A stretch of 64,000 bases of DNA from Eledone cirrhosa (Eukaryota): assembly GCA_964016885.1 (NCBI GenBank), contig OZ024741.1:388616001-388680000 (forward strand), given 5' to 3'. The notes under the pieces were generated by a model. The model saw only the letters and a list, made by a program, of their open reading frames with translations, was not told where the DNA came from and did not search any database. Shown one piece after another: positions 23,295 through 64,000 of this stretch. How positions within the stretch are numbered: the first letter of the stretch is position 1; every line of letters starts with the position of its first letter. The translations under genes and the position numbers were made by a program.

Positions 23295-23517
23295 GTGCCA
23301 CAGTAATAGATTAACAGAATTGTTAGAGTGTCAGACAAATGTTTTACTGTTCTGGCTCTTTATATTCTGTGTTCAAATTCCACTGATGTCAATTTGCCTT
23401 TTATTCTTCCAGGGTCAATGAAATAAGATACCAATGAAGTACTAGGGTCGATAAATTAAAGTACCAGTAATGCACTGGGTAATTGCTGGCCTTGTGCCAA
23501 AAGTAGAAACAATTATT
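23295..23517 (+). mobile_element. tRNA-derived SINE (octopus-type)
   Basis: Box A-like aacagaattgttag, box B-like gtgttcaaattcc, body ggtcgataaattaaagtaccag, 3' end ccttgtgccaaaagtagaaacaattatt. Related copies at 23580 and 24820. Confidence 0.7.
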
Positions 23518-40051: not shown

Positions 40052-40210
40052 AGCAAGATGATTGGATAACATCAACGAGCTTGGCTAGTATTGCTTGGGG
40101 ATCCAGCCAGATCAATTGAAGATTGCTGCTTCTGACAAGACCTGCTGGAAAGGAGTGTTTGATAACTCTGCCTCCATGACCCTCTCAGGAATAAGTGGGC
40201 AAAGAAGACA
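40052..40210 (+). mobile_element. RTE-clade LINE 3' fragment (same family as 25130)
   Basis: ttggataacatc..gagcttggct...cttggggatccagc..gatca.ttgaaga..g.tgcttctgaca.gacc is shared with 25277-25360. Confidence 0.65.

Positions 40211-40295: not shown

Positions 40296-40334
<39 letters not shown>
40296..40334 (+). repeat. (TAA)n junction tract 1
   Basis: Perfect (AAT)n abutting the 3' end of Tx1 copy A. Confidence 0.95.
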
Positions 40335-40335
<1 letters not shown>

Positions 40336-40574
40336 TTTTCTTTATTAACCACAAGGGTTTACATAAAGTAGACATTAAGGACAGTACAGGACAATACAGG
40401 ACGGTACAAATGGGCATTTCTGCGTGTAAAAAAAACAGAGGATGAAATAAAATAACAAAGAAAAATTCCCCAATAGGGGGGAGACTTCCGAGGGACATTT
40501 GTGGAGAAAGCCCATTAAAAGACCACAGTGACCCTGACCACCAGGGCAAGTGCCCTCCCCCAGTTTTCCACCCT

Positions 40575-43500
40575 TAATTTACAGACACATACTCAGAGTA
40601 GGCCCATTCACTCGGGCCATACTTGCTTCTCTCACCCATCTTTCAACAAAATGCTGGGAAGAGAGCACTTCCCTCTCTACCCTGATTTTCCTTTTCAAAT
40701 GAAATTTGAAAAAGTTAATCAAGTTAATCATCACCGAAGAGGTAAGTGCTCGTCTTCAGCCCTTTCAAACGTGTCCACCATACTATCTCTTTCTCCATGG
40801 CCACCAGACAGATAAAAACTTCCTGCCCTTCCCGGCTAAAGGAAGAGTGCAGGGCAATCCTCACAATGGACTCAGCTGATAGCTGGATCCGTCCTACACG
40901 TGACAGCAGGTGTTCGACATAAACCCACAAGTCAGCAATGCTCGGACACTGGACGAGTCTGTGCAGGACGGTTTCGTCGCCATGCGCGCATCTCGGGCAT
41001 GCCCGGCTGACGGCACCTCCATGCCTGTAGAGTTTATCCCGAACTGGCAAAGCTCCCCGGTAGCACTGCCAGGCCAGGGATTTCTGGAAGTTGTCCATAG
41101 GCCCCGGCCCGAAAGTCCTTCCGAAGAGATTGGCTAGTTGATTTTCGTCGACGCCTAGAGTTTCTCCAAGTACGTCGTCGCTCTTCCCCTCCACTAATCC
41201 CCTATAGAACGCCAAGGTGGAGTTTCCACCGATCACATTGCCCGATTGGTCGAGGGCTGTGAGCGCCTGAAGACATTCCAGTCTCCAAGCGCTCCCTCTC
41301 GGTCTTCGCTTGACCCAGGACTGCAGCTCCGTCAAGGAGACGAGCTGGGGAAAAACGTGTCTAGCAAACGGCGACCACACCTGATCACCGTCGAGGAAGA
41401 GGTGGAGATGTCGTATCCTGAGCGTGTGTCTGCGCATCATCAGCCACGGCATGCCCAGCCCTCCACGTAGCGGGTGTTGACAGCAGATGGACCGCCTGAC
41501 CATCGGAGCGCGTCCCTTCCACAAGAAGCGAAAGAGCAAACACTCCAGCGCAGTCAGGCGGGGCTTAGGACAAGGTACGACGGTCAGGCGGTAGTAGATG
41601 ACGGACGCGATGTACGCATTCGCCACCTCCGCTCGACCTTTCAGGGATAGCTTCCTCTCCGCCCATTTCTGGGTGAGAGAAGCCACCCTGCTCGTCACCT
41701 CGTCCCAGTTTTTTGTCCGACTGTAGGTCTGGACCGAACCAGACCTCTAGCAATTTAACCGGTCCGTCCGTCCAGCGCCCGGCGACGCTGTTGGACGGCA
41801 TGGACCTGCCTCTCCAGGTGCCGAGCTGCAGGCCCACTGACTTTTCCAGGTTGATCATTTCTCCTGTCACCGCTTCGTATTCTCTTAGTGTAGTGCCGAT
41901 CGCCTCAATGTGTTTGGCGTTCGACACCACTATGGTGACATCGTCGGCATATGCTGACACGGATCTTCCGCATCCTAGCTCGAGCGGGACCCCTCTCAAC
42001 GTCTCCAGTTTGTGCAGTAATGGCTCGAGAGTCAATACGTACAATAGGGACGAGAGGGGACATCCTTGGCGGACCGAGCGCATGATGTTGAACGGTTCCG
42101 AAAGGTGACCGTTCACTCTCACTACAGAGCAGATGTCGCTGTGCATGGCAGCGATCCAGCCTCTGAAGACGGGCCCAAAGCCAGCCGCCCTCAGGACTGC
42201 CGCTAGGTAACGATGGTCGACCCTATCGAAGGCTTTCGACTGATCTAAATTGATCAAAGACCCACCCGTGCCAGGTTCCCTAGCTACCCTCTCTACGATG
42301 TATCGAATGAGGTGGAGGTTGTCGTGGATGGATCTGTCGGGAATGGCGCATGTCTGTGCCTCTCCCACCAGACCACCAACGACAAGCGCCAACCTCTTTG
42401 CTAGCACCTTGGCCAAAATCTTGAACTCTGTGTTTAGCAGAGTTATGGGCCTAAAATTATCTATGTTATCCCCCTTGTTCGGATCCTTTCTCAGCAGCGC
42501 CACCGCTCCTCGGCTCACAGAGCTCGGAATTCTCCCGTTCTGTTGCCAGTTGCAGTAGACGTCCGCCAAGAGGCCTCCGAACAAGTCTGGCATTTGTACG
42601 TAAAGTTCATAGGGCAGACCATCCAAACCAGGCGATTTACCCCTTGTGCAACTAGTCATTGCATCCCGTACTTCAGCGGTTGTTATCGGCTTTTCGCAAC
42701 ACTCCGCCTCAGTGGCCGAAAGCCGCGGCAGTCCGTCGAGGTAGACACTAAAGTCCATCCCTCGATCCGGCCCGCCACTGCCCCCGAACATTTGAGCGAA
42801 GTGTCGCTGAAAAGCTTCACACATTTGCCCGGGATCGAGTAGCATGCGCCCGTCGTGGTCCACCAAAGACCGGATCGTGGCTTTATTGCCACGACGCGCC
42901 TCCGCTACTCGGGCCCATTGAACGGCTTTCGTCCCCTCGTGTCTGAGAGCACGCACCCTTGCTCTGACAACGCAGCCTTCGTGCTTTGCATTGAAGAATT
43001 GGTCAAGGGCCAATTTCGCCGCAAGTACGTCGGTCGCGATGTCTTTGCTAAGCGCCTCGTCTAATTTTCTAACTAATTCTCCCTCTGCTCTATTTTTCTC
43101 TATTGCTAAAGCCTTACTAAACCTAATGGACTCTATTCTAATTGCTCTTTTCAGAGCAAACCACCACTTGTTGTTGACGATGGCCCCCGTCAACGCCCGC
43201 GTAACTAGTTCGCTAATCAGGTCTCTGTAGGCCTTGCGCGCTGGTAAGGACGCGTTTAGCTTCCAGTAGCCGGGTCCTCGTCTATGAAGCCTATCTAAGT
43301 CAAGCACACAGATCACGAATTTGTGGTCCGTGTAGCTGACTATCTTGAATTGTGGACAGCCTATGCTAGACTTATCTATTTCCCTACAAAATACTCTATC
43401 TAGATATGATCTGGATGACCCTATGCGATTTGTCCAAGTCCACATTGGTACATTCGGGAAATCCATTCGGTACCTGTCAGACAGTTCAAAACGCCTGAGC

Positions 43501-44003
43501 AGGTTGGTGAGACTCTTGCACCCTCCTTCCCTATCCACTAATCCCACACAATCCCAGCGTGCATCTAAGATCCCGTTCCAGTCGCCCACTAACATTAAAG
43601 AGCGGGACGTTCCAAGAAAGGTCTCCAGACGCCGGAAGAAATCAGGCCGCCCTGCTCCTGTCGGGGCATAGACGGCCACTAACCTGAAAGCTTGCCCGTC
43701 TCCGCTGGTCACGTCCAGCACCACCAATTTACCTTCTGGGTCCAGGAATAAGGTCCGTATGGCAAGATCCAAACCTCTCCGAAAAAGCACAGCAACTCCT
43801 CCCCCCGATCCCGGACGGCTGGGAGATGCGTACACATCGTAGCCGCCGAAGATCGGTGCGAAGGCCCGTGCTTCGGAGATTCTAGTCTCGCTGATGGCCA
43901 CTACATCTATGTTTAGTGACCTGAGGTCGTTGAGCAGGTGGCCGCGCTTCCATGACGACCACAAGCCACGCGCATTTATGCTGCCTATTCTGAGTGAGGT
44001 CAT
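40575..44003 (-). pseudogene. Tx1 ORF2 (AP endonuclease + reverse transcriptase + C-terminal Zn finger), copy A, two frameshifts
   Basis: SINARGL, ISET, VYAP, GDWN, YLDRV, TDH (EN); KSPGLDG, RPITLLN, DQSKAFDRV, VRQGCPLS, YADD (RT); CPRC..ETVLH..VQC. Shifts near 41710 (T6 vs T5 in copy C) and ~40725. Confidence 0.93.
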
Positions 44004-44037
44004 GTTGAAAAGGAGTGGAAAAGATGGGAAAGACCAC

Positions 44038-46037
44038 TTACCTTACTTCTCGTAGGGGAAGGACGGTTTTTCTATCCTTTTCACTGCTTGTGGCCTCCTC
44101 AGGAAGGATGTCCTTATAAATCCTCCTGGCGAGTGCTTGTCGGAAGTCTCCGATGTCTTTGGGGAATTTTTGTTTTAGTGTCATGTACGTTTTCTGTGTG
44201 ATGCGAGTGATTTGTATGTGTGGAGGTGGTGTGAATTTTTGGGTTGTTGTGTAGTCTTTTTCTGTGATGCTGGTGTTGTGTTGGATGTAGTGTAATAATT
44301 GCTTGTTGTTCAAATTTAATGCTGTGTAGTGTGTATCGTTTTGGTTGTTTTGTTTTGTTTGCGTTTGTTGTGGGTTTGTTTCTGTTTCGCATTTTGGTGA
44401 CTTTTGTGGTGTAGGTGATGGTGGTGTTGGGGTTAATGATGGTGATAGTGTTGGTGTTTGGGTTGATGGCGTTGGTGATGCTGGTGTGGATGGTGGCATA
44501 TCTGTCCTAACTTTTTTGTTTGTTAATTTATTTGTTTCCCTCTGTATTTTGTTTTGGAGGGGGAAGGAAGGGAATTTCTTCTTTTTTGGTTTCTTTTTTT
44601 TTTCCTGATACCGTTTCCCACTCCTCGTCGTCACAATCTGTCTCCAGTTGTGATAGGCCGGGGAGTGGAAAATCCTCCACAGGCGTTAGTTTTGGTTGTG
44701 GCGTGGTGGATGGTGTAGGCGCTGGTGCTAGTTCTGAAGCGTTGGGTGGTGGTGGTGTTGGTTTTGCTGGTGGTGGTGGTGTTGGTTTTGCTGGTGGTGG
44801 TGGTGTTGGTTTTGCTACTGTTGCTGGGGTTGTTGCTGTTATAGTTGCTTCTGTTGTTGCTGCTTCAGTTGTTGCTGCCATCTCTGCTACTGGTGGTGTT
44901 GATGGTTGTGTCACTGGGGTGGGTAGGAGAGGTGGCCTTAACCTTTTAGCCTGAGGGCAGAAAGCCCTTAGGTGGGTTCCTTCACCACAAACGGCACACC
45001 TAGGCCTTCTGCCCTCGACAATTACGGTGAGGTGGCTGCCGTCAGTGAGGTCTATTACCTCTGGGATCTCTTCAATGCTTTTTTGGTCCGCTTGGATCAG
45101 GAGCTCCATCCCAGATCCGGACCAGTTCTCCTGCTTTTCTTTTGCTATTGCTATTATCTTTGTGTTGGCTTCGATGCCGGCGAGGACGGCCGCTATTAGC
45201 CAGGGAATTTCGATGGCCGGTGGAACGTGGGTCACCCTGATCTTTACGAGTCTCTGGCCACAATAGCTTGGGACGAGTGTGAAGTCGTCACTTCTTAATG
45301 GGGCCATGGAGTGTTCTCTAGCCTCCTCTGGTGTTTCAAAGAACACGTCCACTGTTCCATACTTCTGCCCACGTCTGATGTGGGTATTTCTTGCCCACAC
45401 ATGTCCCAAAGCTTTTTGGATTTGGGACTCGGATGCCCGTTCCACTCGGCGCGATTTTACATTTATTGTTCGATACGACACGGTGCATAGGCGCCGATGC
45501 TCCATTTTATTAGGTGGGGGGGGGGCTGACCCTGTACCCATCTTTCTTTACCATTTGTTTGGCATTTTCTAAATCCTCCTGAGTTACCGTAAATGCTTCG
45601 AACTGTTTTGCTACGATGGCGAAACTGAGGGTGGTTTTTTTAATGTCATTGTTGTTGTTGTTGCTATCGTTATTTTTGTTATTATTAATTTTAGTTTCAG
45701 TTGTGGTGGTGGTGACGTCAGTGAAAGTCGGTTTGGGAGAGTCCATTTTGATTGAAAATATTTCGACATCACGAGTTGATTTATTTTTTCCTTTTGTTTC
45801 TGTTGTCGCGGTGGTGGTGGTTGTCGAGGGGATGGTGGTGGTGGCGGATTTAACACCTGCAGTCATTGATAATGGCGGGAAATGAATGTCTGCCTGAGAC
45901 AAATTTAAAATATTGTTACTGCTTATATTTTTTTTAGTGTTGGCAAACGTAGTAACATTTACAATGGTGGTGTCGGTGTGAGGTGTTAATTTGTGAGGAA
46001 GGCTTTCAGCTGCTTGGTGCAGAGGTGAATTAGCCAT
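44038..46037 (-). pseudogene. Tx1 ORF1 (Gag-like, CX2CX4HX4C), copy A, split at homopolymers
   Basis: ORFs 45510-46037, 44528-45541 and 44038-44634 join at a G-run (~45516-45525) and a T-run (~44594-44603); VEGRRPRCAVCGEGTHLRAFC. Copy D reads through the first break in frame. Confidence 0.88.
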
Positions 46038-46246
46038 TTTTTTTTCAAAGAAATTTTTGGATAATCATAAAAGTTTTATTTTGGGCACAAGGCCCCAATC
46101 TTTTTGGGTGTCCTTTTCGGAAAACAATGTATGTGCGCTTATATATAGTTAACAATAAAAATTTTCCATAAATGGCAATTTTTAACAAACAGAAATAACA
46201 AACCTTTGCGGAGCTCACGATGATACGATTTACTACGTAGGTCGCC

Positions 46247-46284
<38 letters not shown>
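46247..46284 (+). repeat. (TAA)n junction tract 2
   Basis: Between the 5' end of Tx1 A and the 5' end of Dong-like 1. Confidence 0.95.
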
Positions 46285-46286
<2 letters not shown>

Positions 46287-49200
46287 CAAGTCTAAACACC
46301 TAAAGATGCATGTGTGTGTATGTGTGTTCTTTCTTGAACATGGCGGACCTTGTTGTCTCTTGAGGTGACACTCGTTCTAGAAGTGGTAACACGTATAAGG
46401 ATAAAACGCGACAAAATAAAGTAAATGTCTAATGATAAAATCTCACACCGGATCGGCCGTCACCCGGGTAAAAAAGGGCCGCGTCCCTCAGAGAGGAACC
46501 AGACGGGGGGTCGAAAAATCAGCTAATGGTTCAAACCTTCCCATCACTTCGGAGCTGGAGACCTCCCATAACCGGAATACTCCTACTGTTGGCTCTCCAT
46601 GCTCACCACCAAGAAATCCAAAGAAAAAGAGCGAAAAATGGTCAAGGGAAGATAATAAAGAAGTCCTTGAGGCTTTCTACACTGCCATGTACTACCCATC
46701 AAATACATCGAATACAGAACAGACATATATCAACTGTAAAAAGAAACACCCCGAAAACAGAGGCTATATTGACAGTAGCAAACTAGCCAATATACGAAGC
46801 AATATTGTAAAAAAAAAGTTACTAACTGATACAGAAATTGATCAGATCAAGCTATTAGCACAAAGTCAGCGAAGGGAAATGAAACATGTGTCAGTGAAAA
46901 CGAGGTAAATTGTAACACTTCGAATCCCAGGGTTGGGGCGGAATCACTGACAACAGAACAAATTAAAGAAAGGATCGAAAAAGTGGAGGGAATACATGCT
47001 CAAGATGAAACTCCAAATGAAAACAATGAGATCGTAAATGATAAAGAAATGAATGAGAATGAGCTTGCCAACTTGAAGGATGAAATTATGATCGAATGGA
47101 TGAAAATGAAAGAATCTGACATGGGGGAACGAGACACCCTCCCTAAGATCCAGAACTCCAAACAGAACCAAAAGATAATACACAAGACTAACATAATTAT
47201 CAAAAACATTATCATCACAAACAAACTAAACATTACTGATTTAAATCATCTCTATTATGCATCGGCTAAAGTCACCACTCACTTATGTGGAGTGAAGATG
47301 AAAAAACAAAGGAATTCCCACAGGAAATCTACTTGGCAAGAGAACATCAATCGCCAAATAAACCTTCTGCGATCTGACATAGAAATTTTAAAAAACTATA
47401 AAGTAGGTGAACATGTTAAACAAACTAAACTTAGAAAATTGAAAAGAAAGTACAGTATAAAACCAACAAGTGACATAGGCATGCTGATAGAAATAATCAA
47501 GCAAAAAGTGTCGGCCAAAGCTGCTCGTATAAGGCGCTTTGAAAAACGATCTAGATTCTATAAGGACAATAATATGTTCAAAACCAACCAAAGAAACTTC
47601 TACAGAAAAATTGGTAAGTCAACAATAACTGCTAAATCAATACCACCCAAGGAGGAAGTGCAAGAATTCTGGGAAAAGATCTGGGCCGAAGAAAAAGTTC
47701 ATAATATACATGCCCCATGGATAGACAGACAAATGAAAGATACAGCTCACCTTGAGGAACAAACATGGGAAAATATAACAGTTGAACAGTTGCGTTTGGC
47801 TCTAAGAAAAACCAGCAAATGGAAATCCCCAGGAAAAGACAAAATACAAAATTTTTGGATAAATGCCTTCACAGAGTCTCATGAGCTGTTAGCCCAACTT
47901 TACAATGAAATAGTTAAGGAGCCAGAAAAGATACCATCATGGCTAATTAACGGCATTACATTCCTGCTTCCGAAGAATGATGAGACAAACAATCCCAAAA
48001 ATTACAGACCGATAATTTGCTTGACCACAATGTATAAAATTTTAACATCAGTCCTAACTGAGTATACATATGACCACCTGATAACAAATGACCTATTTCC
48101 CATTGAGCAGAAAGGGTGTAAACGAGGCTCATATGGCTGTAAGGATCAGCTTTTGGTTAACAAAATGACACTGGAAGATTGTCATAATAGACACAAAAAT
48201 CTATCAATTGCTTGGATAGATTATAAAAAAAGCATTCGATAGTTTGCCACACAGTTGGATTGAAAAATGTTTAGAGATTTTCAAAATATCCCCCGTTGTC
48301 AGGAGGTTTTTGTCATTCAGTATGAAGACATGGAAAACGACACTTCTTTTGAATAGTGAAAAAAAATCACTGGAAGCTGGAGAAGTTAATATTAATTGTG
48401 GAATTTTTCAGGGTGACTCTTTATCACCACTTTTATTCTGCATCGCGCTTATACCATTAAGTAAAATGCTCAATGAAACAAAACATGGATATAAAGTCTA
48501 TGACAAAACCATTAATCACTTGTTCTACATGGATGACCTGAAACTATTTGCAAAAAACGATGAACAATTGCAAGGGCTATTATCCACTGTGGAGCAGTTC
48601 AGTGATGACATTAAAATGGAGTTTGGACTGGATAAATGCGCCAAAGCAACGTTCACCAGAGGAAAGCTGCTGAAAAGTTCAGACATTAATCTTGATCGAG
48701 GGAATGTGATAAGAGAACTTGATCAAGAGGAAACTTACAAATATCTAGGTGTTTGTGAAGGAGACGGAATCAAGCACTCGACAATGAGGGAAGGATAAGG
48801 AAGGAATGTTACGGCAGAGTAAGAGCAATCTTAAGAACAGAATTGAATGCAAGGAATAGGATCGATGCCATAAACACGCTTGCCATACCAGTAGTAACCT
48901 ACAGTTACAATGTCATCAACTGGTCAAGCACAGAGATCCGTAGGCTCGATAAAAAATTAGAAAATTCTTAACCATGCACAGAATGCATCACCCTAAGGCT
49001 GATACAGATAGAATATATCTCCCTAGGAAAGAAGGAGGACGTGGGTTAATCCAGTTAGACATTGCGTTGAAAACTGCAACAATTGGATTATCTACATATC
49101 TAAGGGAATCACATGATTGGATGATCAAACTCGTTTTGAAACACGAAAGCATCAAAAGATCATACTCCATTACAAAAGATGCACAAAGATACAGTAATGG

Positions 49201-50215
49201 ACTACACATTTCAGAAGTCCCATTTACTGCTGAAATGGAAAACACAGAAAAAGCAAAGCAGGTAAAAGTAACTGCAAAGAAAGAACTGCTACAGAAACTG
49301 GCTAAGAAATGGCAAGAAAAGCCTCTGTATGGAAAATACCCAGAACGAGCTAACAATCCTGATGTTGACAAAACTTTAACCCATCAGTGGTTGGCATCCT
49401 CTGGACTGAAATCAGAGACTGAAGGACTGATTATATCAGCACACGATCAGTGTCTGCCAACAAAAAAATTACCAAGCCAACATAATAAAAAATGGATGCA
49501 GCCCATTATGCCGTGTATGTAAAAAAAACAACCAGAGACCATTGACCATATAATTTCAATGTGCAGTCCTATAGCTCCAACCGAATACCTAAACAGGCAT
49601 GACAGAGCTGCACAATACATACATTGGATAATGTGTAAGCATTTTGACCTGCCCCATCAAAAGAATTGGTGGGAGCATCAGCCACCTCCCATACTTGAAA
49701 AAGATCACATCTCAATCTTGTGGAACTTTAGCATCCAAACAGACCGAAAAATAGATGCAAATAGACCTGATATAATATTGAAGGACTTTAAAAAGAGGGT
49801 ATGCCTGCTAATTGATATGTCCGTTCCAATAGACAAGAATGTATCTATAAAAACATTTGAAAAATTGAGCAAGTATAAGGACCTGGAGATAGAAATTGGA
49901 AAAATGTGGAAATTGAGAACTAAAACAATACCAGTGGTTGTAGGCGCTCTAGGAATGATACCTAAGGGGTCTAATGATTACTTATCGCAAATCCCAGGAA
50001 ATGGAGTATAGGAGAAATACAAAAGATAGTACTAATGGGAACTGCCCATATACTAAGGAAGATTCTGTCAATATAAGTACATCACAAGTCTAAACACTAA
50101 AGATACATGTGTGAGTGTGTATGTTCTTTCTTGAACATGGCGGACCTTGTTGTCTCTTGAGGTCACTGGTTGTGACTTGGTGATAACTCGTATGAACATA
50201 AAGCAAGATAAATGC
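46285..50215 (+). mobile_element. R4/Dong-clade RLE non-LTR retrotransposon (Dong-like 1), apparently full length
   Basis: Single long ORF (broken) with RT, CCHC and restriction-like endonuclease; (TAA)n at both ends. Confidence 0.9.
46432..50076 (+). pseudogene. RT-RLE polyprotein of Dong-like 1, multiple frameshifts
   Basis: WKSPGKDKIQNFWI, NYRPIICL, EQKGC, WIDYKKAFD, GIFQGDSLSPLLF, YMDDLK, YKYLG, GGRGL, CRVC..PETIDHIISMC, RHD, ANRPDIIL..LIDMSVP..KLSKYKDL (PD-(D/E)xK type). Confidence 0.9.
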
Positions 50216-50234
50216 ATAATAATAATAATAATAA
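50216..50234 (+). repeat. (TAA)n junction tract 3
   Basis: Tail of Dong-like 1 and 5' flank of Dong-like 2. Confidence 0.9.
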
Positions 50235-50925
50235 ACACCATATTTACAAGGAGGAGGCTAGCCCACTGTGTAGGATCTGTGGAGAGAGAGAGGAGACTGT
50301 GGCTCACATTGTATCCGAGTGTAAACACCTAGCCCAGACTCACTATAAAGGCTGGAGACATGATGTGATGGGCAGGGTGATCCACTGGCACCTATGCAAA
50401 GTAAACAATTTACCACATTCTGAGAAGTGGTATGAGCATATGCCAGAGGCGGTGATAGAAAACGATCAGGTGAAGGTGCTGTAGGATTTTAGGATTCAGA
50501 CGGATAAGAAACTGGAACACAATAGGCCTGACCTGGTGGTTTTGGACAAGGAAAAAAGATCGTGCCTGATTGTGGATGTAGCCTGCCCATTTGATACGAG
50601 AGTCCAAGAAAAGGAGAGGGAGAAAATTACCCGATACCAGGATTTAAAGTGGGAGGTAAAAAGGAATTGGAACTGCCATGAAGTCAAAGTCGTCCCTATT
50701 GTCATAGATGCACTAGGTACTATCTCAAAGAGTTTCCAAGGATGGTTAAAGAAAGTTAGTCCAGCCCCGCTTTTTGGAACATTTCAAAAGGCATGCTTGC
50801 TGGGAACAGCAAGAACACTCTGATACGTCCTGAATATCTGAGGCTGCAGGTAGTGGCTTGATATTCATTTCAACAAACTTTCCAGTTAACTAACATCAAT
50901 GACAATAACTAACTAACTCAAAAAC
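50235..50925 (+). mobile_element. Second R4/Dong-clade family (Dong-like 2), 5'-truncated
   Basis: CRICGEREETVAHIVSEC, RHD, HNRPDLVV..LIVDVACPFD..KITRYQDL; internal stop; clearly diverged from Dong-like 1; (TAA)n tail. Confidence 0.88.
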
Positions 50926-50952
50926 AATAATAATAATAATAATAATAATAAT
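50926..50952 (+). repeat. (TAA)n junction tract 4
   Basis: Shared tail-to-tail by Dong-like 2 (+) and Tx1 B (-). Confidence 0.95.
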
Positions 50953-53900: not shown

Positions 53901-56347
53901 TCTTGCCAATGAAGTCTATCTAAGTCAACTTCACAGATCACAAATTTGTGGTCCATGTTGTCGACTACTCTAAATTGTGGACAACCTACACTATCCTTAT
54001 CTGTTTCCCTACAGAATACCCTATCTAAATACGATCTGGATGACCCGATGCGGTTTGCCCATGTTCACATGTCAACATTGGCACATTCGGATAATCCAGT
54101 CTATACCTGTCAGACAGTTCAAAACATTTGAGCAGGTTGTTGAGGCTTTTACACCCTCCTGCCCTGTCTACTAGCCCCACATAATCCCAGCGTGCATCTA
54201 AGATACCGTTCCAGTCGCCCACTAACACTAAAGAGCGGGACGTTCCAAGAAAGGTCTCTAGACGTCTGAAGAAATCTAGCCGTCCTGCCCCTGTTGGGGC
54301 GTAGACGGTTACTAGCCTGAAAGCATTGCCTTCGCTACCTGTCACGTCCAGCACCACCGACTTACCTTGATCGCGTGGTGAAGGGACAGTAGAAACATCC
54401 CTTTGGCTGGTCATGGGTGTTTCCAAGAGGATGTCGGTGTATATCCTCTTGGTAATCGACCCTCTGAAGTCTCCAACGGCGTTGGGGAATTTTTGCTTTA
54501 AAAGTTTGTAATGTTCTATTGAGATTTCAATGATGCTTATGTTTGTCGGGAGAGTTCTTGGTGTTGGTGGGGTGTAGTAGTTTTTCTGTGTTTGCGATGT
54601 TGGTGTTTTTGGTGATGCTGGTGGTGGTGTGGTTGTTGTTGGTGGTCATGCTTGTGGTGGTGATAGTGATGGTGGTGATGTTGCTGCAAGTCTCCTTGCA
54701 GCCTTTACCCCTCTTTGTCTGCCTTCGCTTTTGGAGGATGAAGCTAAGGGTTATTTTGGTTTTTGGTTTTTTGTGGCAGACCGTTTGCCACTTCCCTCCC
54801 GCCTCACACTCCATGTCGGACCCCGCGGCGTCCGGGACGGACATGAGCTCCACTGCTGTTGGTGGTGGTAGTGGAGCCCGCTCCGGCGATTTTACCGCCG
54901 GCGTAGCTACTGCGACTGTTGGTGTTGCCGCCACTGCTGCCGCTGCTTTAGTTGTCCGTGGCCATGATATGGGTGCCACGGACGTTGCCATCCTACTCAC
55001 CATGGAAGGGTCTTCTGCCTCTGTTGCCTGCCCTGCTCTTGGTAGCAGCGGATCAGGTATCGGAAGGAGGGGGACTCTCTTCTTGGATGTCGTCTGCGGA
55101 CAGAAGGCCCTAAGGTGACTCTTCTGCCCACATAGATAGCACTTTGGGCGCCTTCCTTCGACGCTTATAGGGAGATGGAGCCCTTCTTCGAGGTCTATGA
55201 GGTCTGGGATGGCCTTGATGCACTCCTGGTCAATCTGTATTAGCATTTGCATGCCTATTCCTGACTAGTTCTCTCTTCCCGTTCTCTGTATTTGTAGTAT
55301 GGTGGTCTTCTCCTCAATTCCAGCCAGTGCAGACGCGGCCAGCCAAGGTATGGGCACATCGGGCTGGACCTGGGTCACTTTGACCCTCACAATTTTCTGC
55401 CCACAGTAGGAGGGTACCAAGACTATCTCCTCACTCTTTAGGGTTTCCAAAGAGTGAGACTTCGCCTCTTGGTGGGGTGGCGAAAAGTACGTCTACTGTG
55501 CCGTACTTTTTGCCTCGGGTGATGTGGGTTTTGCACACCAAAACGCAACCCAAGGTCTTTAAGATTTGATCCTCCATGGCTCTCTCCACCCGATGCAACA
55601 TTTTGCTTACAGTGCGGTAAGTCACCGTGCGCAGATGCTAGTCTTTGAAGAAATCGGATGGAGGTTTCAGGGAAACTCTGTTGTCGTTTCTCGACACCAT
55701 GGCTCTTGCAACTGCCATCTCCTCCTCTGTGACTAGCACTGTTTCTATATTTCGGGCCACACCTGCGAAAGAAGTAGCCCCTTTTTCAGCGGCACCATTA
55801 TTGCTGCCGCTACTGGTTTTGTTGTTGGTGTTGTTGCTGTTATCACTGTTGTAGTTGGTTGTGTTTTTGGTGCCACAGTTGTTGTTGTTTTTGGTGCAAT
55901 TTGTATTGTTGCTGGTGGTGTTGTCGTTGTTTATTTTCTTGTTAGTGGTGTTAATATTGTTGTTGCATTTGTTGTCATTTTTTTCTGTTGTCTGTATTTT
56001 CGTTGTCGCTGTTATTGTTGTAGTTGGTGTGGTAATTTTTTCGAAATTAGTGTTCTCAGTGTTGTCTTTGTTCACGTTGTGTTTGGTGGTGTTTGTTGAA
56101 ACAATGTTTGTAACCCTCCTCTCAACTTTTACGCCATTGTCAGACGACAGCAGACATAATTCTTTTTTTTAAAGTAAAATGTTCAAATATTTGGGCCAAA
56201 AGGCCTAAATATTTTACTTTCCCCTTCACAGGGCAAAGTCTAAGGGCTTATATCCCTTACACAACAAGAAATATTTAACAACAAATAATTTTAACAGGCA
56301 AATAAAGCGACCTACTAGGAGCGGGCAAAAAGCGTCCAAACAGACCG
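50953..56347 (-). mobile_element. Tx1/L1-group element, copy B (distinct, more decayed subfamily)
   Basis: ORF1 remnants (VEGRRPKCYLCGQKSHLRAFC) at ~54380-56157; ORF2 remnants 51190-54366 with stops, YADN, and the EN N-terminus deleted; different 5'UTR; 3' end cccttgtggccAATAAAgaaacc(ATT)n. Confidence 0.92.

Positions 56348-56397
<50 letters not shown>
56348..56397 (+). repeat. (TAA)n junction tract 5
   Basis: Between the 5' end of B and the 3' end of C. Confidence 0.95.
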
Positions 56398-56399
<2 letters not shown>

Positions 56400-56646
56400 T
56401 TTCTTTATTAACCACAAGGGTTTACATAAAGTAGACATTAAGGACAGTGCAGGACAATGCAGGACGGTACAAATGGGCATTTCTGCGTGTAAAAAACAAA
56501 AACAGAGGATGTAACAAAAAATAACAATGAAAAATTTCCCAATAGGGGGGAGACTTCGGAGGGACATTTGTGGAGAAAGCCCAGTAAAAAGCCACAATGA
56601 CCCTGACCACCAAGGCAAGTGCCCTTCCCAGTTTTCCACCTTTAAT

Positions 56647-59600
56647 TTACAGATATATACTCAGAGTAGGCCCATTCACTCGGGCCATTCTTTCTTCTCT
56701 CACCCATCTTTCAACAAAATGCTGGGAAGAGAGTACTTCCCTCTCTACTCTGATTTTCCTTTTCAAATGAAATTTGAAAAAGTCAATCAGAGCATCACCG
56801 AAGAGGTAAGTGCTCGTCTTCAGCCCTTTCAAACGTGTCCACCATACTATCTCTTTCGCCATGGCCACCAGACAGATAAAAACTGCCTGCCCTTCCCGGC
56901 TAAAGGAGGAGGGAGGGGCAATCCTCACGATGGACTCAGATGATAGCCGGATCCGTCCTAAACGCGACAGCAGGTGTTCGACATAAACCCACAAGTCAGC
57001 AATTTTCGGACACTGGACGAGTGCGTGCAGGACGGTTTCGTCGCCCTGCGCGCATCTCGGACATGCCCGGCTGACGGCACCTCCATGCCTGTAGAGTTTA
57101 TCCCGAACTGGCAAGGCTCCTCGGTAGCACTGCCAGGCCAGAGATTTCTGGAAGTTGTCCATAGGCCCCGGCCCGAAAGTCCTTCCGAAGAGATTGGCTA
57201 GTTGATTTTCGTCGACGCCTAGAGTTTCCCCAAGTACGTCGTCGCTCTTCCCCTCCACTAATCCTCTATAGAACGTCGAAGTGGAGTTTCCACCGATCAC
57301 ATTGCCCGATTGGTCGAGGGCTGTGAGCGCCTTAAGACATTCCAGTCTGCAGGCGCTCCCTCTCGGTCTTCGCTTGACCCAGGACTGCAGCTCCGTCAAG
57401 GAAACGAGCTGGGGAAATACGCGTCTAGCAAACGGCGACCACACCTGATCACCGTCGAGGAAGAGGTGGAGATGTCGTAGCCTGAGCGCGTGCCTGCGCA
57501 TCATCAGCCACGGCATGCCCAGCCCTCCACGTAGCGGGTGTTGACAACAGATGGACCGCCTGACCATCGGAGCGCGTCCCTTCCACAAAAAGCGAAAGAG
57601 CAAACGCTCCAGCGCAGTCAGGCGGGGCTTAGGACAAGGTACGACGGTCAGGCGGTAGTAGATGACGGACGCGATGTACGCGTTAGCCACCTCCGCTCGA
57701 CCTTTCAGGGATAGCTTCCTCTCGGCCCATTTCTGGGTGAGAGAAGCCACCCTGCTCGTCACCTCGTCCCAGTTTTTGTCCGTCTGGAGGTCTGGACCGA
57801 ACCAGACCCCTAGCAATTTAACCGGTCCGTCCTTCCAGCGCCCGACGACGCTGTTGGACGGCATGGACCTGCCTCTCCAGGTGCCGAGCTGCAGGCCCAC
57901 TGACTTTTCCTGGTTGATCATTGCTCCTGTCACCGCTTCGTATTCTCTTAGTGTAGTGCCGATCGCCTCGATGTGTTTGGCGTTCGACACCACTACGGTG
58001 ACATCGTCGGCATATGCTGACACGGATCTTCCGCATCCTAGTTCGCGCGGGACCCCCCTCAACGTCTCCAGTTTGTGCAGTAATGACTCGAGAGTCAATA
58101 CGTACAATAGGGACGAGAGGGGACATCCTTGGCGGACCGAGCGCATGATGTTGAACGGTTCCGAAAGGTGACCGTTCACTCTCACTACAGAGCAGATGTC
58201 GCTGTGCATGGCAGCGATCCAGCCTCTGAAGACGGGCCCAAAGCCAGCCGCCCTCAGGACTGCCGCTAGGTAACGATGGTCGACCCTATCGAAGGCTTTC
58301 GACTGATCTAAATTGATCAAAGACCCACCCGTGCCAGGTTCCCTAGCTACCCTCTCTACGATGTATCGAATGAGGTGGAGGTTGTCGTGGATGGATCTGT
58401 CGGGAATGGCGCATGTCTGTGCCTCTCCCACCAGACCACCAACGACAAGCGCCAACCTCTTTGCTAGCACCTTGGCCAAAATCTTGAACTCTGTGTTTAG
58501 CAGAGTTATGGGCCTAAAATTATCTATGTTATCTCCCTTGTTCGGATCCTTTCTCAGCAGCGCCACCGCTCCTCGGCTCACAGAGCTCGGAATTCTCCCG
58601 TTCTGTTGCCAGTTGCAGTAGACGTCCGCCAAGAGGCCTCCGAACAAGTCTGGCATTTGTACGTAAAGTTCAGAGGGCAGACCATCCAAACCAGGCGATT
58701 TACCCCTTGTGCAACTAGTCATTGCATCCCGTACTTCAGCGGTTGTTATCGGCTTTTCGCAACACTCCGCCTCAGTGGCCGAAAGCCGCGGCAGTCCGTC
58801 GAGGTAGACACTAAAGTCCATCCCTCGATCCGGCCCGCCACTGCCCCCGAACATTTGAGCGAAGTGTCGCTGAAAAGCTTCACACATTTGCCCGGGATCG
58901 AGTAGCATGCGCCCGTCGTGGTCCACCAAAGACCGGATCGTGGCTTTGTTGCCACGACGCGCCTCCGCCACTCGGGCCCATTGAACGGCTTTCGTCCCCT
59001 CGTGTCTGAGAGCACGCACCCTAGCTCTGACAACGCAGCCTTCGTGCTTTGCATTGAAGAATTGGTCAAGGGCCAATTTCGCCGCAATTACGTCGGTCGC
59101 GATGCCTTTGCTAAGCGCCTTATCTAATTTTCTAACTAATTCTCCCTCTGCTCTATTTTTCTCTATTGCTAAAGTCTTACTAAACCTAATGGACTCTATT
59201 CTAATTGCTCTTTTCAGAGCAAACCACCACTTGTTGTTGACGATGGCTCCCGTCAACGCCCGCTTAACTAGTTCGCTAATCCGGTCTCTGTAGGCCTTGC
59301 GCGCTGGTAAGGACGCGTTTAGCTTCCAGTAGCCGGGTCCTCGTCTATGAAGCCTATCTAAGTCAAGCACACAGATCACGAATTTGTGGTCCGTGTAGCT
59401 GACTATCTTGAATTGTGGACAGCCTATGCTAGACCTATCTATTTCCCTACAAAATACTCTATCTAGATATGATCTGGATGACCCTATGCGATTTGTCCAA
59501 GTCCACATTGGTACATTCGGGAAATCCATTCGGTACCTGTCAGACAGTTCAAAACGTCTGAGCAGGTTGGTGAGACTCTTGCACCCTCCTTCCCTATCCA

Positions 59601-59898
59601 CTAATCTCACACAATCCCAGCGTGCATCTAAGATCCCGTTCCAGTCGCCCACTAACACTAAAGAGCGGGACGTTCCAAGAAAGGTCTCCAGACGCCGGAA
59701 GAAATCAGGCCGCCCTGCTCCTGTCGGGGCATAGACGGCCACTAACCTGAAAGCTTGCCCGTCTCCGCTGGTCACGTCCAGCACCACCAACTTACCTTCT
59801 GGGTCCAGGAAGATGGCCCGTATGGCAAGATCTAAACCTCTCCGAAAAAGCACAGCAACTCCTCCCCCCGATCCCGGACGGCTGGGAGATGCGTACAC
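56647..59898 (-). CDS. Tx1 ORF2, copy C: uninterrupted 1083-aa frame lacking the first ~50 aa of the endonuclease
   Basis: Open frame with GDWN, TDH, RT YADD and C-terminal CPRC..H..C; natural start and SINARGL/ISET motifs deleted, so probably non-functional. Confidence 0.85.
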   Translation of the reverse strand: MYASPSRPGSGGGVAVLFRRGLDLAIRAIFLDPEGKLVVLDVTSGDGQAFRLVAVYAPTGAGRPDFFRRLETFLGTSRSLVLVGDWNGILDARWDCVRLVDREGGCKSLTNLLRRFELSDRYRMDFPNVPMWTWTNRIGSSRSYLDRVFCREIDRSSIGCPQFKIVSYTDHKFVICVLDLDRLHRRGPGYWKLNASLPARKAYRDRISELVKRALTGAIVNNKWWFALKRAIRIESIRFSKTLAIEKNRAEGELVRKLDKALSKGIATDVIAAKLALDQFFNAKHEGCVVRARVRALRHEGTKAVQWARVAEARRGNKATIRSLVDHDGRMLLDPGQMCEAFQRHFAQMFGGSGGPDRGMDFSVYLDGLPRLSATEAECCEKPITTAEVRDAMTSCTRGKSPGLDGLPSELYVQMPDLFGGLLADVYCNWQQNGRIPSSVSRGAVALLRKDPNKGDNIDNFRPITLLNTEFKILAKVLAKRLALVVGGLVGEAQTCAIPDRSIHDNLHLIRYIVERVAREPGTGGSLINLDQSKAFDRVDHRYLAAVLRAAGFGPVFRGWIAAMHSDICSVVRVNGHLSEPFNIMRSVRQGCPLSSLLYVLTLESLLHKLETLRGVPRELGCGRSVSAYADDVTVVVSNAKHIEAIGTTLREYEAVTGAMINQEKSVGLQLGTWRGRSMPSNSVVGRWKDGPVKLLGVWFGPDLQTDKNWDEVTSRVASLTQKWAERKLSLKGRAEVANAYIASVIYYRLTVVPCPKPRLTALERLLFRFLWKGRAPMVRRSICCQHPLRGGLGMPWLMMRRHALRLRHLHLFLDGDQVWSPFARRVFPQLVSLTELQSWVKRRPRGSACRLECLKALTALDQSGNVIGGNSTSTFYRGLVEGKSDDVLGETLGVDENQLANLFGRTFGPGPMDNFQKSLAWQCYRGALPVRDKLYRHGGAVSRACPRCAQGDETVLHALVQCPKIADLWVYVEHLLSRLGRIRLSSESIVRIAPPSSFSREGQAVFICLVAMAKEIVWWTRLKGLKTSTYLFGDALIDFFKFHLKRKIRVEREVLSSQHFVERWVREERMARVNGPTLSIYL

Positions 59899-59919
59899 AT
59901 CGTAGCTGCCGAAGATCGG

Positions 59920-61500
59920 GTTGATGGTGTTGGTGATGTTGGTGTGGATGGTGGCATATCTGTCCTAACTTTTTTGTTTCTTAATTTATTTGTTTCCCTC
60001 TGTATTTTGTTTTTGGAGGGGGAAGGAAGAGAATTTTTTCTTTTTTGGTTTCTTTTTTTTTTTCCGGATATTGTTTCCCACTCCTCGTCGTCACAATCTG
60101 TCTCCAGTTGTGATAGGCCAGGGAGTGGAAAATCCTCCACAGGCGTTAGTTTTGGTTGTAGCGTGGTGGATGCTGTAGGCGCTAGTGCTAGTTCTGAAGT
60201 GTTGGGTGGTGGTGGTGTTGGTTTGCTGGTGGTGGTGGTGGTGTTGGTTTTGCTACTGTTGCTGGAGTTGTTGCTGTTATAGTTGCTTCTGTTGTTGCTG
60301 CTACAGTTGTTGATGCCATCTCTGCTACTGGTGGTGTTGATGGTTGTGTCACTGGGGTGGGTAGGAGAGGTGGCCTCAACCTTTTAGCCTGAGGGCAGAA
60401 AGCCCTTAGGTGGGTTCCTTCACCACAAACGACACACCTAGGTCTTCTGCCCTCCACAATTACCGTGAGGTGGCTGCCGTCAGTGAGGTCTATTACCTCT
60501 GGGATCTCCTCAATGCTTTTTTGGTCCGCTTGGATCAGGAGCTCCATCCCAGATCCGGACCAGTTCTCCTGCTTTTCTTTTGCTATTGCTATTATTTTTG
60601 TGTTGGGTTCGATGCCGGCGAGGACGGCCGCTATTAGCCAGGGAATTTCGATGGCCGGTGGAACGTGGGTCACCCTGATCTTTACGAGTCTCTGGCCACA
60701 ATAGCTTGGGACGAGTGTGAAGTCGTCACTTCTTAATGGGGTCATGGAATGTTCTCTAGCCTCCTCTGGTGTTTCAAAGAACACGTCCACGGTTCCATAC
60801 TTTTGACCACGTCTGATGTGGGTATTTCTTGCCCACACATGTCCCAAAGCTTTTTGGATTTGGGACTCGGATGCCCGTTCCACTCGGCGCGATTTTACAT
60901 TTATTGTTCGATACGACACGGTGCATAGGCGCCGATGCTCCATTTTATTAGGTGTGGGGGGGGGGGGCTGACCCTTTACCCATCTTTCTTTACCATTTGT
61001 TTGGCATTTTCTAAATCCTCCTGAGTTACCGTAAATGCTTCGAACTGTTTTGCTACTCTGGCGAAACTGAGGGTGGTTTTTATAATGTCATTGTTGTTGT
61101 TGTTGCTATCGTTATTTTTGTTAATATTAATTTTAGTTTCAGTTGTGGTGGTGGTGACGTCAGTCGTCTTTGGTGGGGAAGAGTCCATTTTGCTTGATTT
61201 CATTTCGACATCACGAGTTAATTTATTTTTTTCTTCTTTTGTTTCTGTTGTCGCGGTGGTGGTGGGGGTGGTGGTTGTCACGGTGGTGGTGGTGGTGGTG
61301 GTGGTGGAGGTTTTAACACCTGCAGTCATTGGTAATGGCGGGAAATGAATGTCTGCCTGAGACAAATTTAAAATATTGCTACTGCTTATATTTTTTGTCG
61401 TGTTGGCAAACATAGTAACATTTACAATGGTGGTGTCGGTGTGAGGTGTTAATTTGTGAGGAAGGCTTTCAGCTGCTTGGTGCAGAGGTGAATTAGCCAT
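59920..61500 (-). pseudogene. Tx1 ORF1, copy C
   Basis: ORFs 60976-61500, 60188-60943 and 59832-60140 closely match copy A ORF1; CVVCGEGTHLRAFC. Confidence 0.88.
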
Positions 61501-61709
61501 TTTTTTTCAAAGAAATCTTTTGATAATAATAAAGGTTTAAATTTTGGGCACAAGGTCACACTCTTTTTGGGTGTCCTTTTCGGAAAACAATGTATGTGCG
61601 CTTATATATGGTTAACAATAAAAATTTTCCATAAATGACAATTTTTAACAAACGGAAATAACAAACCTTTGCGGAGCTCATGATGATACGATTTACTACG
61701 TAGGTCGCC

Positions 61710-61765
<56 letters not shown>

Positions 61766-61771
61766 TAATAA
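61710..61771 (+). repeat. (TAA)n junction tract 6
   Basis: Between the 5' end of C and the Dong-like 1 fragment; one GAT variant. Confidence 0.95.
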
Positions 61772-62254
61772 TGTCTGCCAACAAAAAATTACCAAGCCAA
61801 CATAATAAAAAATGGATGCAGCCCATTATGCCGTGTATGCAAAAAACAACCAGAGACCATTGACCATATAATTTCAATGTGCAGTCCTATAGCTCCAACC
61901 GAATACCTAAACAGGCATGACAGAGCTGCACAATACATACATTGGATAATGTGTAAGCATTTTGACCTGCCCCATCAAAAGAATTGGTGGGAGCATCAAC
62001 CACCTCCCATACTTGAAAAAGATCACATCTCAATCTTGTGGAACTTTAGCATCCAAACAGACCGAAAAATAGATGCAAATAGACCTGATATAATATTGAA
62101 GGACTTTAAAAAGAGGGTATGCCTGCTAATTGATATGTCTGTTCCAATAGACAAGAATGTATCTATAAAAACATTTGAAAAATTGAGCAAGTATAAGGAC
62201 CTGGAGATAGAAATTGGAAAAATGTGGAAATTGAGAACTAAAACAATACCAGTG
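61772..62254 (+). mobile_element. Dong-like 1 fragment (CCHC-RLE region), truncated at both ends
   Basis: Nearly identical to 49451-49935; open frame CLPTKNYQ...CRVCKKQPETIDHIISMC...KTIPV. Confidence 0.92.
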
Positions 62255-64000
62255 TTGGGGTTAATGATGGTGATGGTGTTGGTGTTTGGGTTGATGGGGT
62301 TGGTGATGCTGGTGTGGATGGTGGTATATCTGTCCTAACTTTTTTGTTTCTTAATTTATTTGTTTCCCTCTGTATTTTGTTTTTGGAGGGGGAAGGAAGA
62401 GAATTTTTTCTTTTTTGGTTTCTTTTTTTTTTCCTGATACAGTTTCCCACTCCTCGTCGTCACAATCTGTCACCAGTTGTGATAGGTCGGGGAGTGGAAA
62501 ATCCTCCACAGGCGTTGGTTTTGGTTGTGGCGTGGTTGTTGGTGGAGGCGCTGGTGCTAGTTCTGGCGCGGTGGGTGGTGGTGGTGTTGGTTTTGCTACT
62601 GTTGTTGGGGTTGCTGCTGCTACAGTTGTTGTTGCCATTTCTGCTGCTGGTGGTGTTGATGGTTGAGTCACTGGGGTGGGTAAGAGAGGTGGCCTCAACT
62701 TTTTAGCCTGAGGGCAAAAAGCCTTTAGGTGGGTTCCTTCACCACAATCGACACACCTAGGCCTTCTACCCTCGACGATTACGGTGAGGTGGCTGCCGTC
62801 AGTGAGGTCTATTACCTCTGGGATTTCCTCAATGCTTTTTTGGTCTGCTTGAATCAGGAGCTCCATCCCAGATCCGGACCAGTTCTCCTGCTTTTCTTTT
62901 GATATTTCAATTATTTTGGTGTTGGCTTCGATGCCGGCGAAGACGGCAGCCATTAGCCAGGGAATTTCGATGGCCGGTGGACGTCAGTCACCCTGATCTT
63001 CACGAGTCTCTGGTCACAATAGCTTGGGACGAGTGTGAAGTCGTCGCTTCTTAATGGGGTCATGGAGTGCTCTCTGGCCTCCTGTGGTGTTCCAAAGAAC
63101 ATGTCCACGGTTCCATATTTCTGCCCACGTCTGATGTGGGTTTTTTTCGCCCACACATGTCCCAAAGCTTTTGGGATTTGGGACTCGGATGCCCGTTCCA
63201 CTCGGCGCGATTTTGTGTCAATCGTCCGATAAGACACGGTGCATAGGCGCCGATGCTCCATTTTATTAGGTGGGGGAGGGGTGCTGACCCTGTACCCATC
63301 TTTCTTTACCATTCTCTTGGCTTCATTTAATTCCTTCTGAGTTACCTCGATTGTTTCGCATTTCTTGGCTGCTTTGGCAAACGACACATTTGCGGTGGTG
63401 TTGATGTTTTTGTTTTTATTCTCATTGTTGTTGTTGCTGTTGTTGTTATTGTTATTTTTGTTATTGTTATTTTTAGTTTCAGTTGTGGTGGTGGTGGTGT
63501 CAGTGGTGTTCGGTGTGGAAGAGTCGATTCTGGGTGAATCCATTTCGATGTCACGAGATAATAATTTATTTTTTTCTTTTGTTTCTGTTGCCGCTGTGGT
63601 GGTGGTGGGGGTGGCGGCTTTAACACCTGCAGTTTTTAGTAATAGCGGGAAATGAATGCCTGCATGAGACAAATTTAAATTATTGCTACTGCTTATATTT
63701 TTAGTGTTGGCAAATGTAGTAATATTTACAATGGTGGTGCTGGTGTGAGGTGTTAGTTTGTGAGGAAGGCTGTCAGCTTGGTGTAGCTGTGAGTCGTCCA
63801 TGATTTTTTCAAAGAAAGTTTTTGTTTGATAATTATAAAAGTTTAAATTTTGGACTCAAGGCCCCAATCTTTTTGAGTGTCCTTTTCCGAAAACAATATA
63901 TGTGAACTTATATACACTTAACAACAAAAATTTTCCATAAATGGCAATTTGAAACAACTGAAAACAACAAACCTTTGCGGAGCTCACGATAATACGATTT
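62252..64000 (-). mobile_element. Tx1/L1-group element, copy D: 5'UTR + ORF1 only, runs off the window
   Basis: ORF1 62953-63801 plus 62351-62953 (CVDCGEGTHLKAFC); 5'UTR matches A/C up to about 15 bp from their 5' terminus; ORF2 lost at the junction with the Dong fragment. Confidence 0.92.

Follow-up and report, generated by a model that had tools for sequence, protein, structure and literature searches.

A 64-kb stretch of Eledone cirrhosa DNA (hereafter the window; G000:C2:388,616,001-388,680,000 of a 3.0-Gb source genome) carries, from position 40,296 onward, an array of long interspersed nuclear elements (LINEs) stacked in TAA repeats. Two classes are involved, Tx1-like elements with an apurinic/apyrimidinic-type endonuclease (APE) and Dong-type elements with a restriction-like endonuclease (RLE), and they lie in opposite, fixed orientations; we consider it about 85% probable that the array arose by repeated, independent, target-specific insertions of both. 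The TAA repeat is the insertion target of these elements and more than a tail, and comparable arrays occur at many other places, which makes this a genome-wide architecture rather than a peculiarity of one locus. At this locus itself the stack may go back to a single ancestral tract.

Tracts of at least five TAA units occur at six places in the window (40298-40333, 46249-46284, 50217-50234, 50928-50951, 56349-56396 and 61712-61762), all reading TAA on the plus strand; no TTA tract of at least five units is present on that strand in the 64 kb, and no TAA tract of that length in the first 40 kb. Between the tracts lie four minus-strand LINE copies with APE and reverse transcriptase (RT) domains and three plus-strand copies of the RLE type, without unique DNA (Table 1). 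An earlier note on this DNA had described the tracts, the element order, the antisense Tx and sense Dong orientations and the absence of unique DNA, all of which the tract scan and domain search bore out. Not every junction has a tract, the Dong1 fragment and Tx D being joined at 62,252-62,254 without one. The extent of ~24 kb that the earlier note had given did not hold: inspection of the neighbouring 40 kb showed that the array runs past the window end to window-relative position 86,302 (G000:C2:388,702,302), spanning ~46 kb with 13 tracts of 12-66 bp, 12 intervals and uniform polarity throughout. Tx D reaches its 5' end at window-relative 64,015, and the order beyond the window up to 86,302 is a Dong2 piece, a 61-bp Tx tail, Dong2, Tx A', Tx E, a Dong2 with an intact open reading frame (ORF) and (TAA)22(GAA)n. 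The array is thus bounded on the left by a Tx tail and on the right by a Dong tail, which is followed by (TAA)22, a GAA run and non-array DNA. Tract 2 separates two 5' ends and is therefore the 3' tail of neither neighbour.

Some junctions in the array are deletions rather than insertions, namely the join of the Dong1 fragment to Tx D and the gaps in Tx C (Table 1) and in Tx B, where ~300 bp that B-like copies at other places possess are missing at 54,368. The window's Tx and Dong1 copies are frameshifted or deleted, with intact relatives at other loci, and the 3'-untranslated-region (UTR) piece that opens Dong1 is 85% identical to a Dong1 3' UTR and replaces the family's ~1.1-kb 5' UTR. The breakpoints of Tx C and Tx D (59,918 and 62,252) lie no more than ~40 bp apart in ORF1, in one and the same GT-rich stretch, and internal deletions are frequent among Tx A copies (18 fused junctions).

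The minus-strand elements contain Exo_endo_phos, RVT_1 and zf-RVT domains. The Tx elements have two ORFs, the second of which comprises an APE endonuclease with its catalytic motifs, an RT and a C-terminal zinc motif. The best solved relative of ORF2 is L1 ORF2p (E 9e-50), with R2 weaker (E 1e-19), and the endonuclease matches L1 endonuclease structures, the hairpin loop of Tx A aligning gap-free to that of L1. Over ORF2, Tx A is 97% identical to Tx C and 80% to Tx B, and Tx D is 84% identical over its 5' part. ORF1 carries a single CCHC knuckle (C-x2-C-x4-H-x4-C) that was read directly; it had no Pfam match above the cut-off and no BLAST match to P0041, and its neighbours in the Atlas, CCHC proteins (0.93) and ZCCHC3-type RNA-binding proteins (0.90), serve as a lead. 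In the Tx1 clade, ORF1 is ZCCHC3-like, with RNA-binding domains and a CCHC knuckle. In a quick RT tree of 64 rows, Tx C fell in a clade of unnamed relatives (support 99), near fish proteins (Shimodaira-Hasegawa-like approximate likelihood ratio test, SH-aLRT, 88) and apart from plant L1; this tree held no named Tx1, Kibi, Koshi or Keno reference, so that we call the elements Tx1-like. Among metagenome relatives of ORF2 (80 loci, mostly at 24-33% identity and too distant to inform), none had a TAA or TTA tract of at least four units. Tx E is a further family with its own 5' UTR and ORF1 and an ORF2 that is 95-97% identical to that of Tx A, a combination that amounts to module swapping between the two. 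In 11 Tx E copies at three other loci, both frames are open in 5 and many copies are ~99% identical to each other; the family is therefore young.

The plus-strand elements are of the type that combines RT, CCHC and RLE. An intact Dong2 copy at locus L135 consists of a single 1,140-amino-acid ORF with an RT, a CCHC motif and a PD..D..K endonuclease stretch; for both the RT and this stretch, with its PD..D..K motif, R2 proteins gave the best alignment. The Dong2 copy of the window is 91% identical to this intact copy at the DNA level, and Dong1 and Dong2 share ~40% amino-acid identity. None of the 120 listed homologues bore a family name; by domains and target, the elements look like new members of Dong. 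Dong1 and Dong2 also have the same 5' start and ~300 bp at 75% identity despite their protein divergence, a second case of module swapping (the loci for the two cases are L048, L106 and window-relative 79,601-81,859).

Junctions across the genome identify the repeat as the target. The earlier note had proposed that TAA repeats were hit repeatedly with repeat left on both sides, and this is supported by the Tx A-type 5' ends: the genome has 2,308 exact ones, and 2,209 of them (96%) directly follow ATTATT. All 30 fetched Tx A 5' ends, the window's own included, lie inside (TTA)n with differing flanks, and all 30 fetched 3' ends lead into ATTATT, either exact or with a single base changed. For Tx E, with 2,497 5' ends in the genome, ATTATT is directly upstream in 99 of the first 100 listed. 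Full-length Tx copies keep one junction phase, the 5' end reading ATTATT|G and the 3' end C|ATTATT. Dong1 shows the opposite polarity and a variable phase: it has 604 full-length 5' ends, and of the first 100 listed, counted by eye, ~77 have a TAA-type hexamer within 12 bases upstream, ~12 a GAA run and 0 a TTA hexamer. GAA runs also stand beside several TAA tracts (for example at window-relative 86,303-86,341), a possible sign that the GAAGAAG start slips or that there is a second target.

Truncated copies obey the same rule. Upstream of truncated Tx 5' ends we counted 11 TTA, 0 TAA and 3 junctions with neither; for truncated Dong1 the counts were 5 TAA, 0 TTA and 2 with neither, and for truncated Dong2 13 TAA, 0 TTA and 1 with neither. 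Left out of these counts are junctions at which the copy is fused to further element sequence (18 Tx, 4 Dong1 and 1 Dong2), and the loci were fetched around elements, which biases tract frequency upward and leaves polarity unbiased. Other arrays follow the same polarity rule. Orientation is fixed genome-wide and most Tx A-type 5' junctions carry ATTATT, the opposite of the random orientation and bare 5' junctions that the earlier note had named as grounds for abandoning its proposal. The 5'-end pattern of Tx B was rejected as evidence of targeting: 10 of its 12 matches continue upstream into shared non-TTA sequence, which by eye resembles the antisense strand of a Dong coding region, and the remaining 2 follow TTA. 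Targeting by Tx B therefore rests on few copies. Some LINEs, such as the I element, do end in TAA repeats, as a passage of PMC3747384 states, and the runs might accordingly be mere 3' tails in a passive pile-up without targeting; but head-to-head tracts exist and are as long as the others, and the ATTATT upstream of 96% of Tx A 5' ends refutes this account, to which we assign next to no probability.

In target-primed reverse transcription, an element with TTA at both ends of its sense strand has been primed from the TAA strand, and one with TAA from the TTA strand. Opposite element polarity under this mechanism therefore implies first nicks on opposite strands: the Tx endonuclease would nick the (TAA)n strand first, and the Dong endonuclease the (TTA)n strand. 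If the Tx RNA ends without repeat, its enzyme would cut at TpA steps, AAT/AAT and then ATT/ATT, and duplication of whole ATT units would leave no visible trace; the L1 endonuclease nicks between T and A. Each insertion would leave repeat on both sides and so renew the target. Target duplication and slippage would add repeat, long TAA tracts would come to lie mostly beside earlier insertions, later insertions would stack there, and deletions between copies would then prune the stacks.

Specificity might instead reside largely in the RNA. An endonuclease that is only loosely specific, for T/purine steps in ATTA, could be guided by co-transcribed terminal repeat RNA pairing with the nicked target, which would set both the (TTA)n preference and the 5' phase. 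Several observations are in keeping with this: full-length Tx copies have a single 5' phase that varies in truncated ones, the endonuclease hairpin loop of Tx A can be aligned gap-free to L1's, the short interspersed nuclear element (SINE) described below accepts ATTA sites, if it is indeed moved by the Tx enzyme, and annealing of RNA to target has been proposed for SART1 in a passage of PMC7265360. Truncated Tx copies, which were made without the RNA 5' end, nevertheless keep an upstream TTA in 11 of 14 cases, and the same source reports that swapping the endonuclease domains of SART1 and TRAS1 changes the target. We regard pairing by RNA as a serious alternative, with perhaps one chance in five, and prefer target choice by the endonucleases.

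The elements are abundant and clustered. In a systematic sample of 40 evenly spaced 10-kb stretches (400 kb), Tx elements make up 4.5% of the sequence and occur in 9 stretches, Dong elements make up 5.8% and occur in 7, and several stretches hold mixed arrays; five stretches chosen for close Tx A pairs and three chosen for close Tx E copies contain arrays of roughly 18-32 kb that follow the same rule. Clustering against chance, which the earlier note had suggested as a check, is evident on C1, where 14 of 99 gaps between Tx A 5' ends are below 20 kb, compared with 2.3 expected. In the systematic sample, 15 of 19 tracts of at least 18 bp, and 590 of 926 tract bases (64%), flank these LINEs, and because most long TAA tracts already do so, the clustering is largely explained. 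The perfect tracts of the present array total ~480 bp, and since the longest genomic tract listed is 114 bp, repeat must have been added. Slippage on the RT tail was rejected as the main source of this repeat, head-to-head tracts (median 45 bp, n=7) being no shorter than tail-to-tail tracts (median 36 bp, n=19). An age gradient along arrays was likewise discarded, as its directions were opposite in two arrays.

Independent insertion is favoured for most neighbours because they are no closer to each other than to distant copies: Tx E neighbours within one array are 98.7-99.2% identical, and identity to copies at other loci reaches 99.4%. This bears on the alternative in which most array growth came from tandem duplication or unequal crossing-over of a few insertions. 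One exact 810-bp duplication and the many fused or deleted junctions speak for such growth; on the other side, at least five families are mixed in the arrays, same-family neighbours in this array are 3-9% apart, neighbours elsewhere show no excess similarity, and truncation points vary. Growth mainly by duplication is thus largely refuted and, in our estimate, very improbable.

Several observations nonetheless weigh against repeated independent insertion as a complete account. First, in another array (G000:C1:55,441,800-55,449,600, L268) two identical copies of an 810-bp Dong1 fragment flank one Tx E copy that differs from its own neighbours by 33 and 57 substitutions. Recent recombination would produce this, and so would a giant target duplication whose nicks fell in separate tracts; simple unequal crossover was rejected, as the middle copy matches neither neighbour throughout. 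Duplication, then, also contributes to array growth. Second, of 29 Tx A copies, 25 have a LINE on the far side of the 5' tract and 13 have one on the far side of the 3' tract (p 0.002), and among the 16 copies with both ends scored the discordant 5'/3' pairs number 9 to 0, an asymmetry that falls outside the simple model and is not explained by it. Third, 2 motif ends stand beside a TTA run, at points where TAA switches to TTA, and two Tx pairs on opposite strands exist on C1, though these are mid-element fusions in which each half keeps its own polarity. Lastly, an empty site and a read or contig bridging a tract were sought in raw reads and contigs, where repeats are skipped, and none was shown.

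This last result, together with the fact that such a join would preserve polarity, is what could be said for an array created by the assembler through the microsatellite. The tracts are, however, under one read length, the assembly contains 416-Mb sequences, each copy has private indels and truncations, and the rule linking element ends to tracts is independent of element order; we consider misassembly extremely improbable. Both element classes occur in sequencing runs under three organism labels; no RNA run was among those listed as holding them, which says nothing about expression. Repeated insertion into TAA repeats, supplemented by some duplication, remains the reading that we prefer.

The SINE, ~190 bp long, has its 3' tail in common with Tx. 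The genome contains at least 136,327 exact matches to this tail, and the tail plus ATTATT has 89,720 matches, a number whose denominator differs from the tail count. It is often found in these tracts in Tx polarity, accounting for 7 of 29 Tx A 3' neighbours. In the systematic sample its 5' flanks showed an excess of TTA-type hexamers in 14 of 33 cases and an excess of the TAA type in 0 of 33, frequencies in random 20-mers being ~3% and 2%, and 13 of 22 full-length SINEs had target duplications of 8-20 bp, mostly starting with ATTATT (shuffled pairs, mean 3.2, maximum 8). The last 30 bases of the SINE align to three Tx 3' ends (p 0.01, 0.0005 and 0.0005 against shuffles, in a post-hoc comparison) and did not align to the Dong1 tail, the Dong2 tail or one other TTA-tailed repeat, the only further tails compared. 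The Tx and SINE 3' ends align gap-free around a stem with a CUUGU loop, with stems AACC/GGTT, GGCC/GGCC and TGGC/GCCA; in 9 related rows, pairing holds for 89% of cells, and both sides have changed in 4 of the 7 pairs. SINEs are nested in two Tx A copies and so moved after those Tx insertions. From the shared tail, polarity and target, we lean towards the view that the Tx ORF2 protein recognises the 3' CUUGU stem-loop and mobilises the SINE in trans.

Four points tell against this proposal. The covariation of the stem comes from only 9 related sequences, and the structure was derived from the same sequences; both SINEs within Tx A used an ATTAAA site and bypassed an ATTATT 21 bases away; the SINE target is looser than that of the LINE, 19 of 33 SINE 5' flanks being without a repeat hexamer; and the Tx 5' UTR holds a motif that fits the SINE tail no less well than the Tx 3' end does. 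Hairpins like the 3' stem-loop, with varied stems, occur in the 5' UTRs of Tx A (46073-46102, minus strand), Tx D, Tx E and Tx B. A GTTCRA motif that resembles the B-box consensus is visible in the SINE. Rfam searches of the Tx and Dong 5' ends and one SINE-bearing locus gave simple-repeat noise only and no ribozyme or tRNA, and the SINE-bearing locus L103 had no Rfam tRNA match. The Dong1 5' UTR contains a fixed 50-bp piece of the SINE tail in Dong sense orientation (e.g. loci L040 and L048), and another repeat family, with a short TTA tail unlike that of the SINE, lies beside (TA)n runs (L103:9814, L105:5097, L132:8688 and L134:1943).

An opposite-orientation pair of LINEs in one repeat, which the earlier note had thought undescribed as part of its composite system, is in itself known. 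Passages of PMC7265360 and PMC10088271 describe TRAS and SART of Bombyx mori, which enter (TTAGG)n in opposite directions and form arrays, and according to the former the TRAS1 endonuclease nicks between T and A. As in TRAS/SART, we found two LINE families using one short repeat in opposite orientations; unlike that pair, in which both partners are R1-clade APE elements at telomeres, an L1-group APE element and an RLE element here share a dispersed (TAA)n microsatellite. The Dong side shows no essential difference from R4-clade Dong elements, having the same single ORF with RT, CCHC and RLE and the same (TAA)n insertion: Dong, DongAg and DongBg target the TAA microsatellite (as stated in part of PMC3812793), and Dong-R4 families have been recently active in Octopus vulgaris (as stated in part of PMC13282606).

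For Tx1, a section of PMC4494074 lists as targets (TC)n for Kibi, (TTC)n for Koshi and (TTCC)n/(TTTC)n for crocodilian Tx1, besides RNA genes and transposons. Our elements resemble these in being APE LINEs that enter a microsatellite, the Koshi unit being one base from TTA, and differ from Kibi and Koshi in that the target is (TTA)n and is shared with an RLE element. Neither 'TTA' nor 'TAA' occurs in the main text of that paper, a check that covered neither its Fig. 3 nor its supplements, which list targets. The same source proposes that crocodilian Tx1-Mar moves SINEU, with a shared target for which the SINE's preference is weaker than the LINE's. The SINE here is likewise tentatively tied to Tx1 machinery through the target and has the weaker preference; unlike Tx1-Mar/SINEU, with its Mariner target, the link here comes also from a shared 3' stem-loop and concerns a SINE of >136,000 copies. 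Dong-R4, L1-Tx1 and abundant SINEs all appear in repeat surveys of cephalopods (in parts of PMC13282606 and PMC8967140); the word 'target' occurs 0 times in PMC13282606, its supplement lying outside this check, and the portions consulted of PMC3747384, PMC4824008, PMC4758252 and PMC4640811 contain neither a TTA-targeting Tx1 nor a Tx1 partner for an octopus SINE. In the literature searched we found no published description of a (TTA)n-targeting Tx1-like family or of this composite system; Repbase lay outside the search, and a prior record there is possible.

The remaining features of the window lie outside the array. An 18-kb G/T-rich minisatellite at 4878-22925 (period ~22, ~840 copies) has a GC skew of 0.97 and long open frames on the minus strand; a second minisatellite of ~470 bp at 25978-26445 has an 11/22/33-bp period; and a decayed long-terminal-repeat retrotransposon pol region with RNase H and an integrase zinc finger occupies 29036-32179 on the minus strand.

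Table 1 Features of the array and the related SINE copy, in window coordinates
Feature	Position	Strand	Remark
SINE copy, 3' part	23445..23512	+	Outside array; shares Tx 3' tail
(TAA)n tract 1	40296..40334	+	Left array edge; tract scan; flank 39510-40120 covered by one low-depth contig in one sequencing run
Tx A	40335..46246	-	Full-length Tx1-like LINE: 5' UTR, ORF1 with CCHC knuckle, ORF2 with APE, RT and zinc finger; frameshifted
Predicted 3'-terminal stem-loop	40343..40363	-	CUUGU loop, directly before AATAAA; motif also ends Tx B, Tx C and the SINE
Second CUUGU hairpin motif copy	46073..46102	-	Tx A 5' UTR; picked by eye
(TAA)n tract 2	46247..46284	+	Head to head (two 5' ends)
Dong1	46285..50216	+	Decayed LINE of the RLE type; its first 120 bp come from the 3' UTR of another copy
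(TAA)n tract 3	50217..50234	+	Dong tail to truncated Dong head
Dong2	50235..50925	+	5'-truncated; second RLE family
(TAA)n tract 4	50926..50952	+	Tail to tail
Tx B	50953..56347	-	Tx1-like LINE, second family
(TAA)n tract 5	56348..56397	+	Tx head to Tx tail
Tx C	56398..61709	-	Tx A family; ~600 bp deleted at 59,918
(TAA)n tract 6	61710..61763	+	Head to head
Dong1 fragment	61772..62254	+	98.8% identical to Dong1; 3' end lost; joined to Tx D tract-free
Tx D	62252..64000	-	5' part of a Tx A-related copy (84%)

Taken more broadly, a TTA-targeting Tx1-like lineage may have converged on the Dong target from the other strand and may drive one of the most abundant SINEs of this genome; SINEs would seed ATT runs, which Tx and Dong elements would lengthen and renew, and the three would form a self-sustaining target system whose polarised arrays make up some 10% of the genome. 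We give this wider picture even odds; on it, the intact, 99%-identical Tx E copies suggest that the system is still running. The findings add (TTA)n to the targets of Tx1-like LINEs and offer a case of APE and RLE enzymes converging on one dispersed microsatellite from opposite strands. They also explain in a simple way why LINEs cluster in this genome and name a testable partner for a SINE with >136,000 exact tails. With intact young Tx E copies available, the choice of target and of strand and the recognition of the tail can be assayed directly, and empty or filled tracts would suit as population markers.

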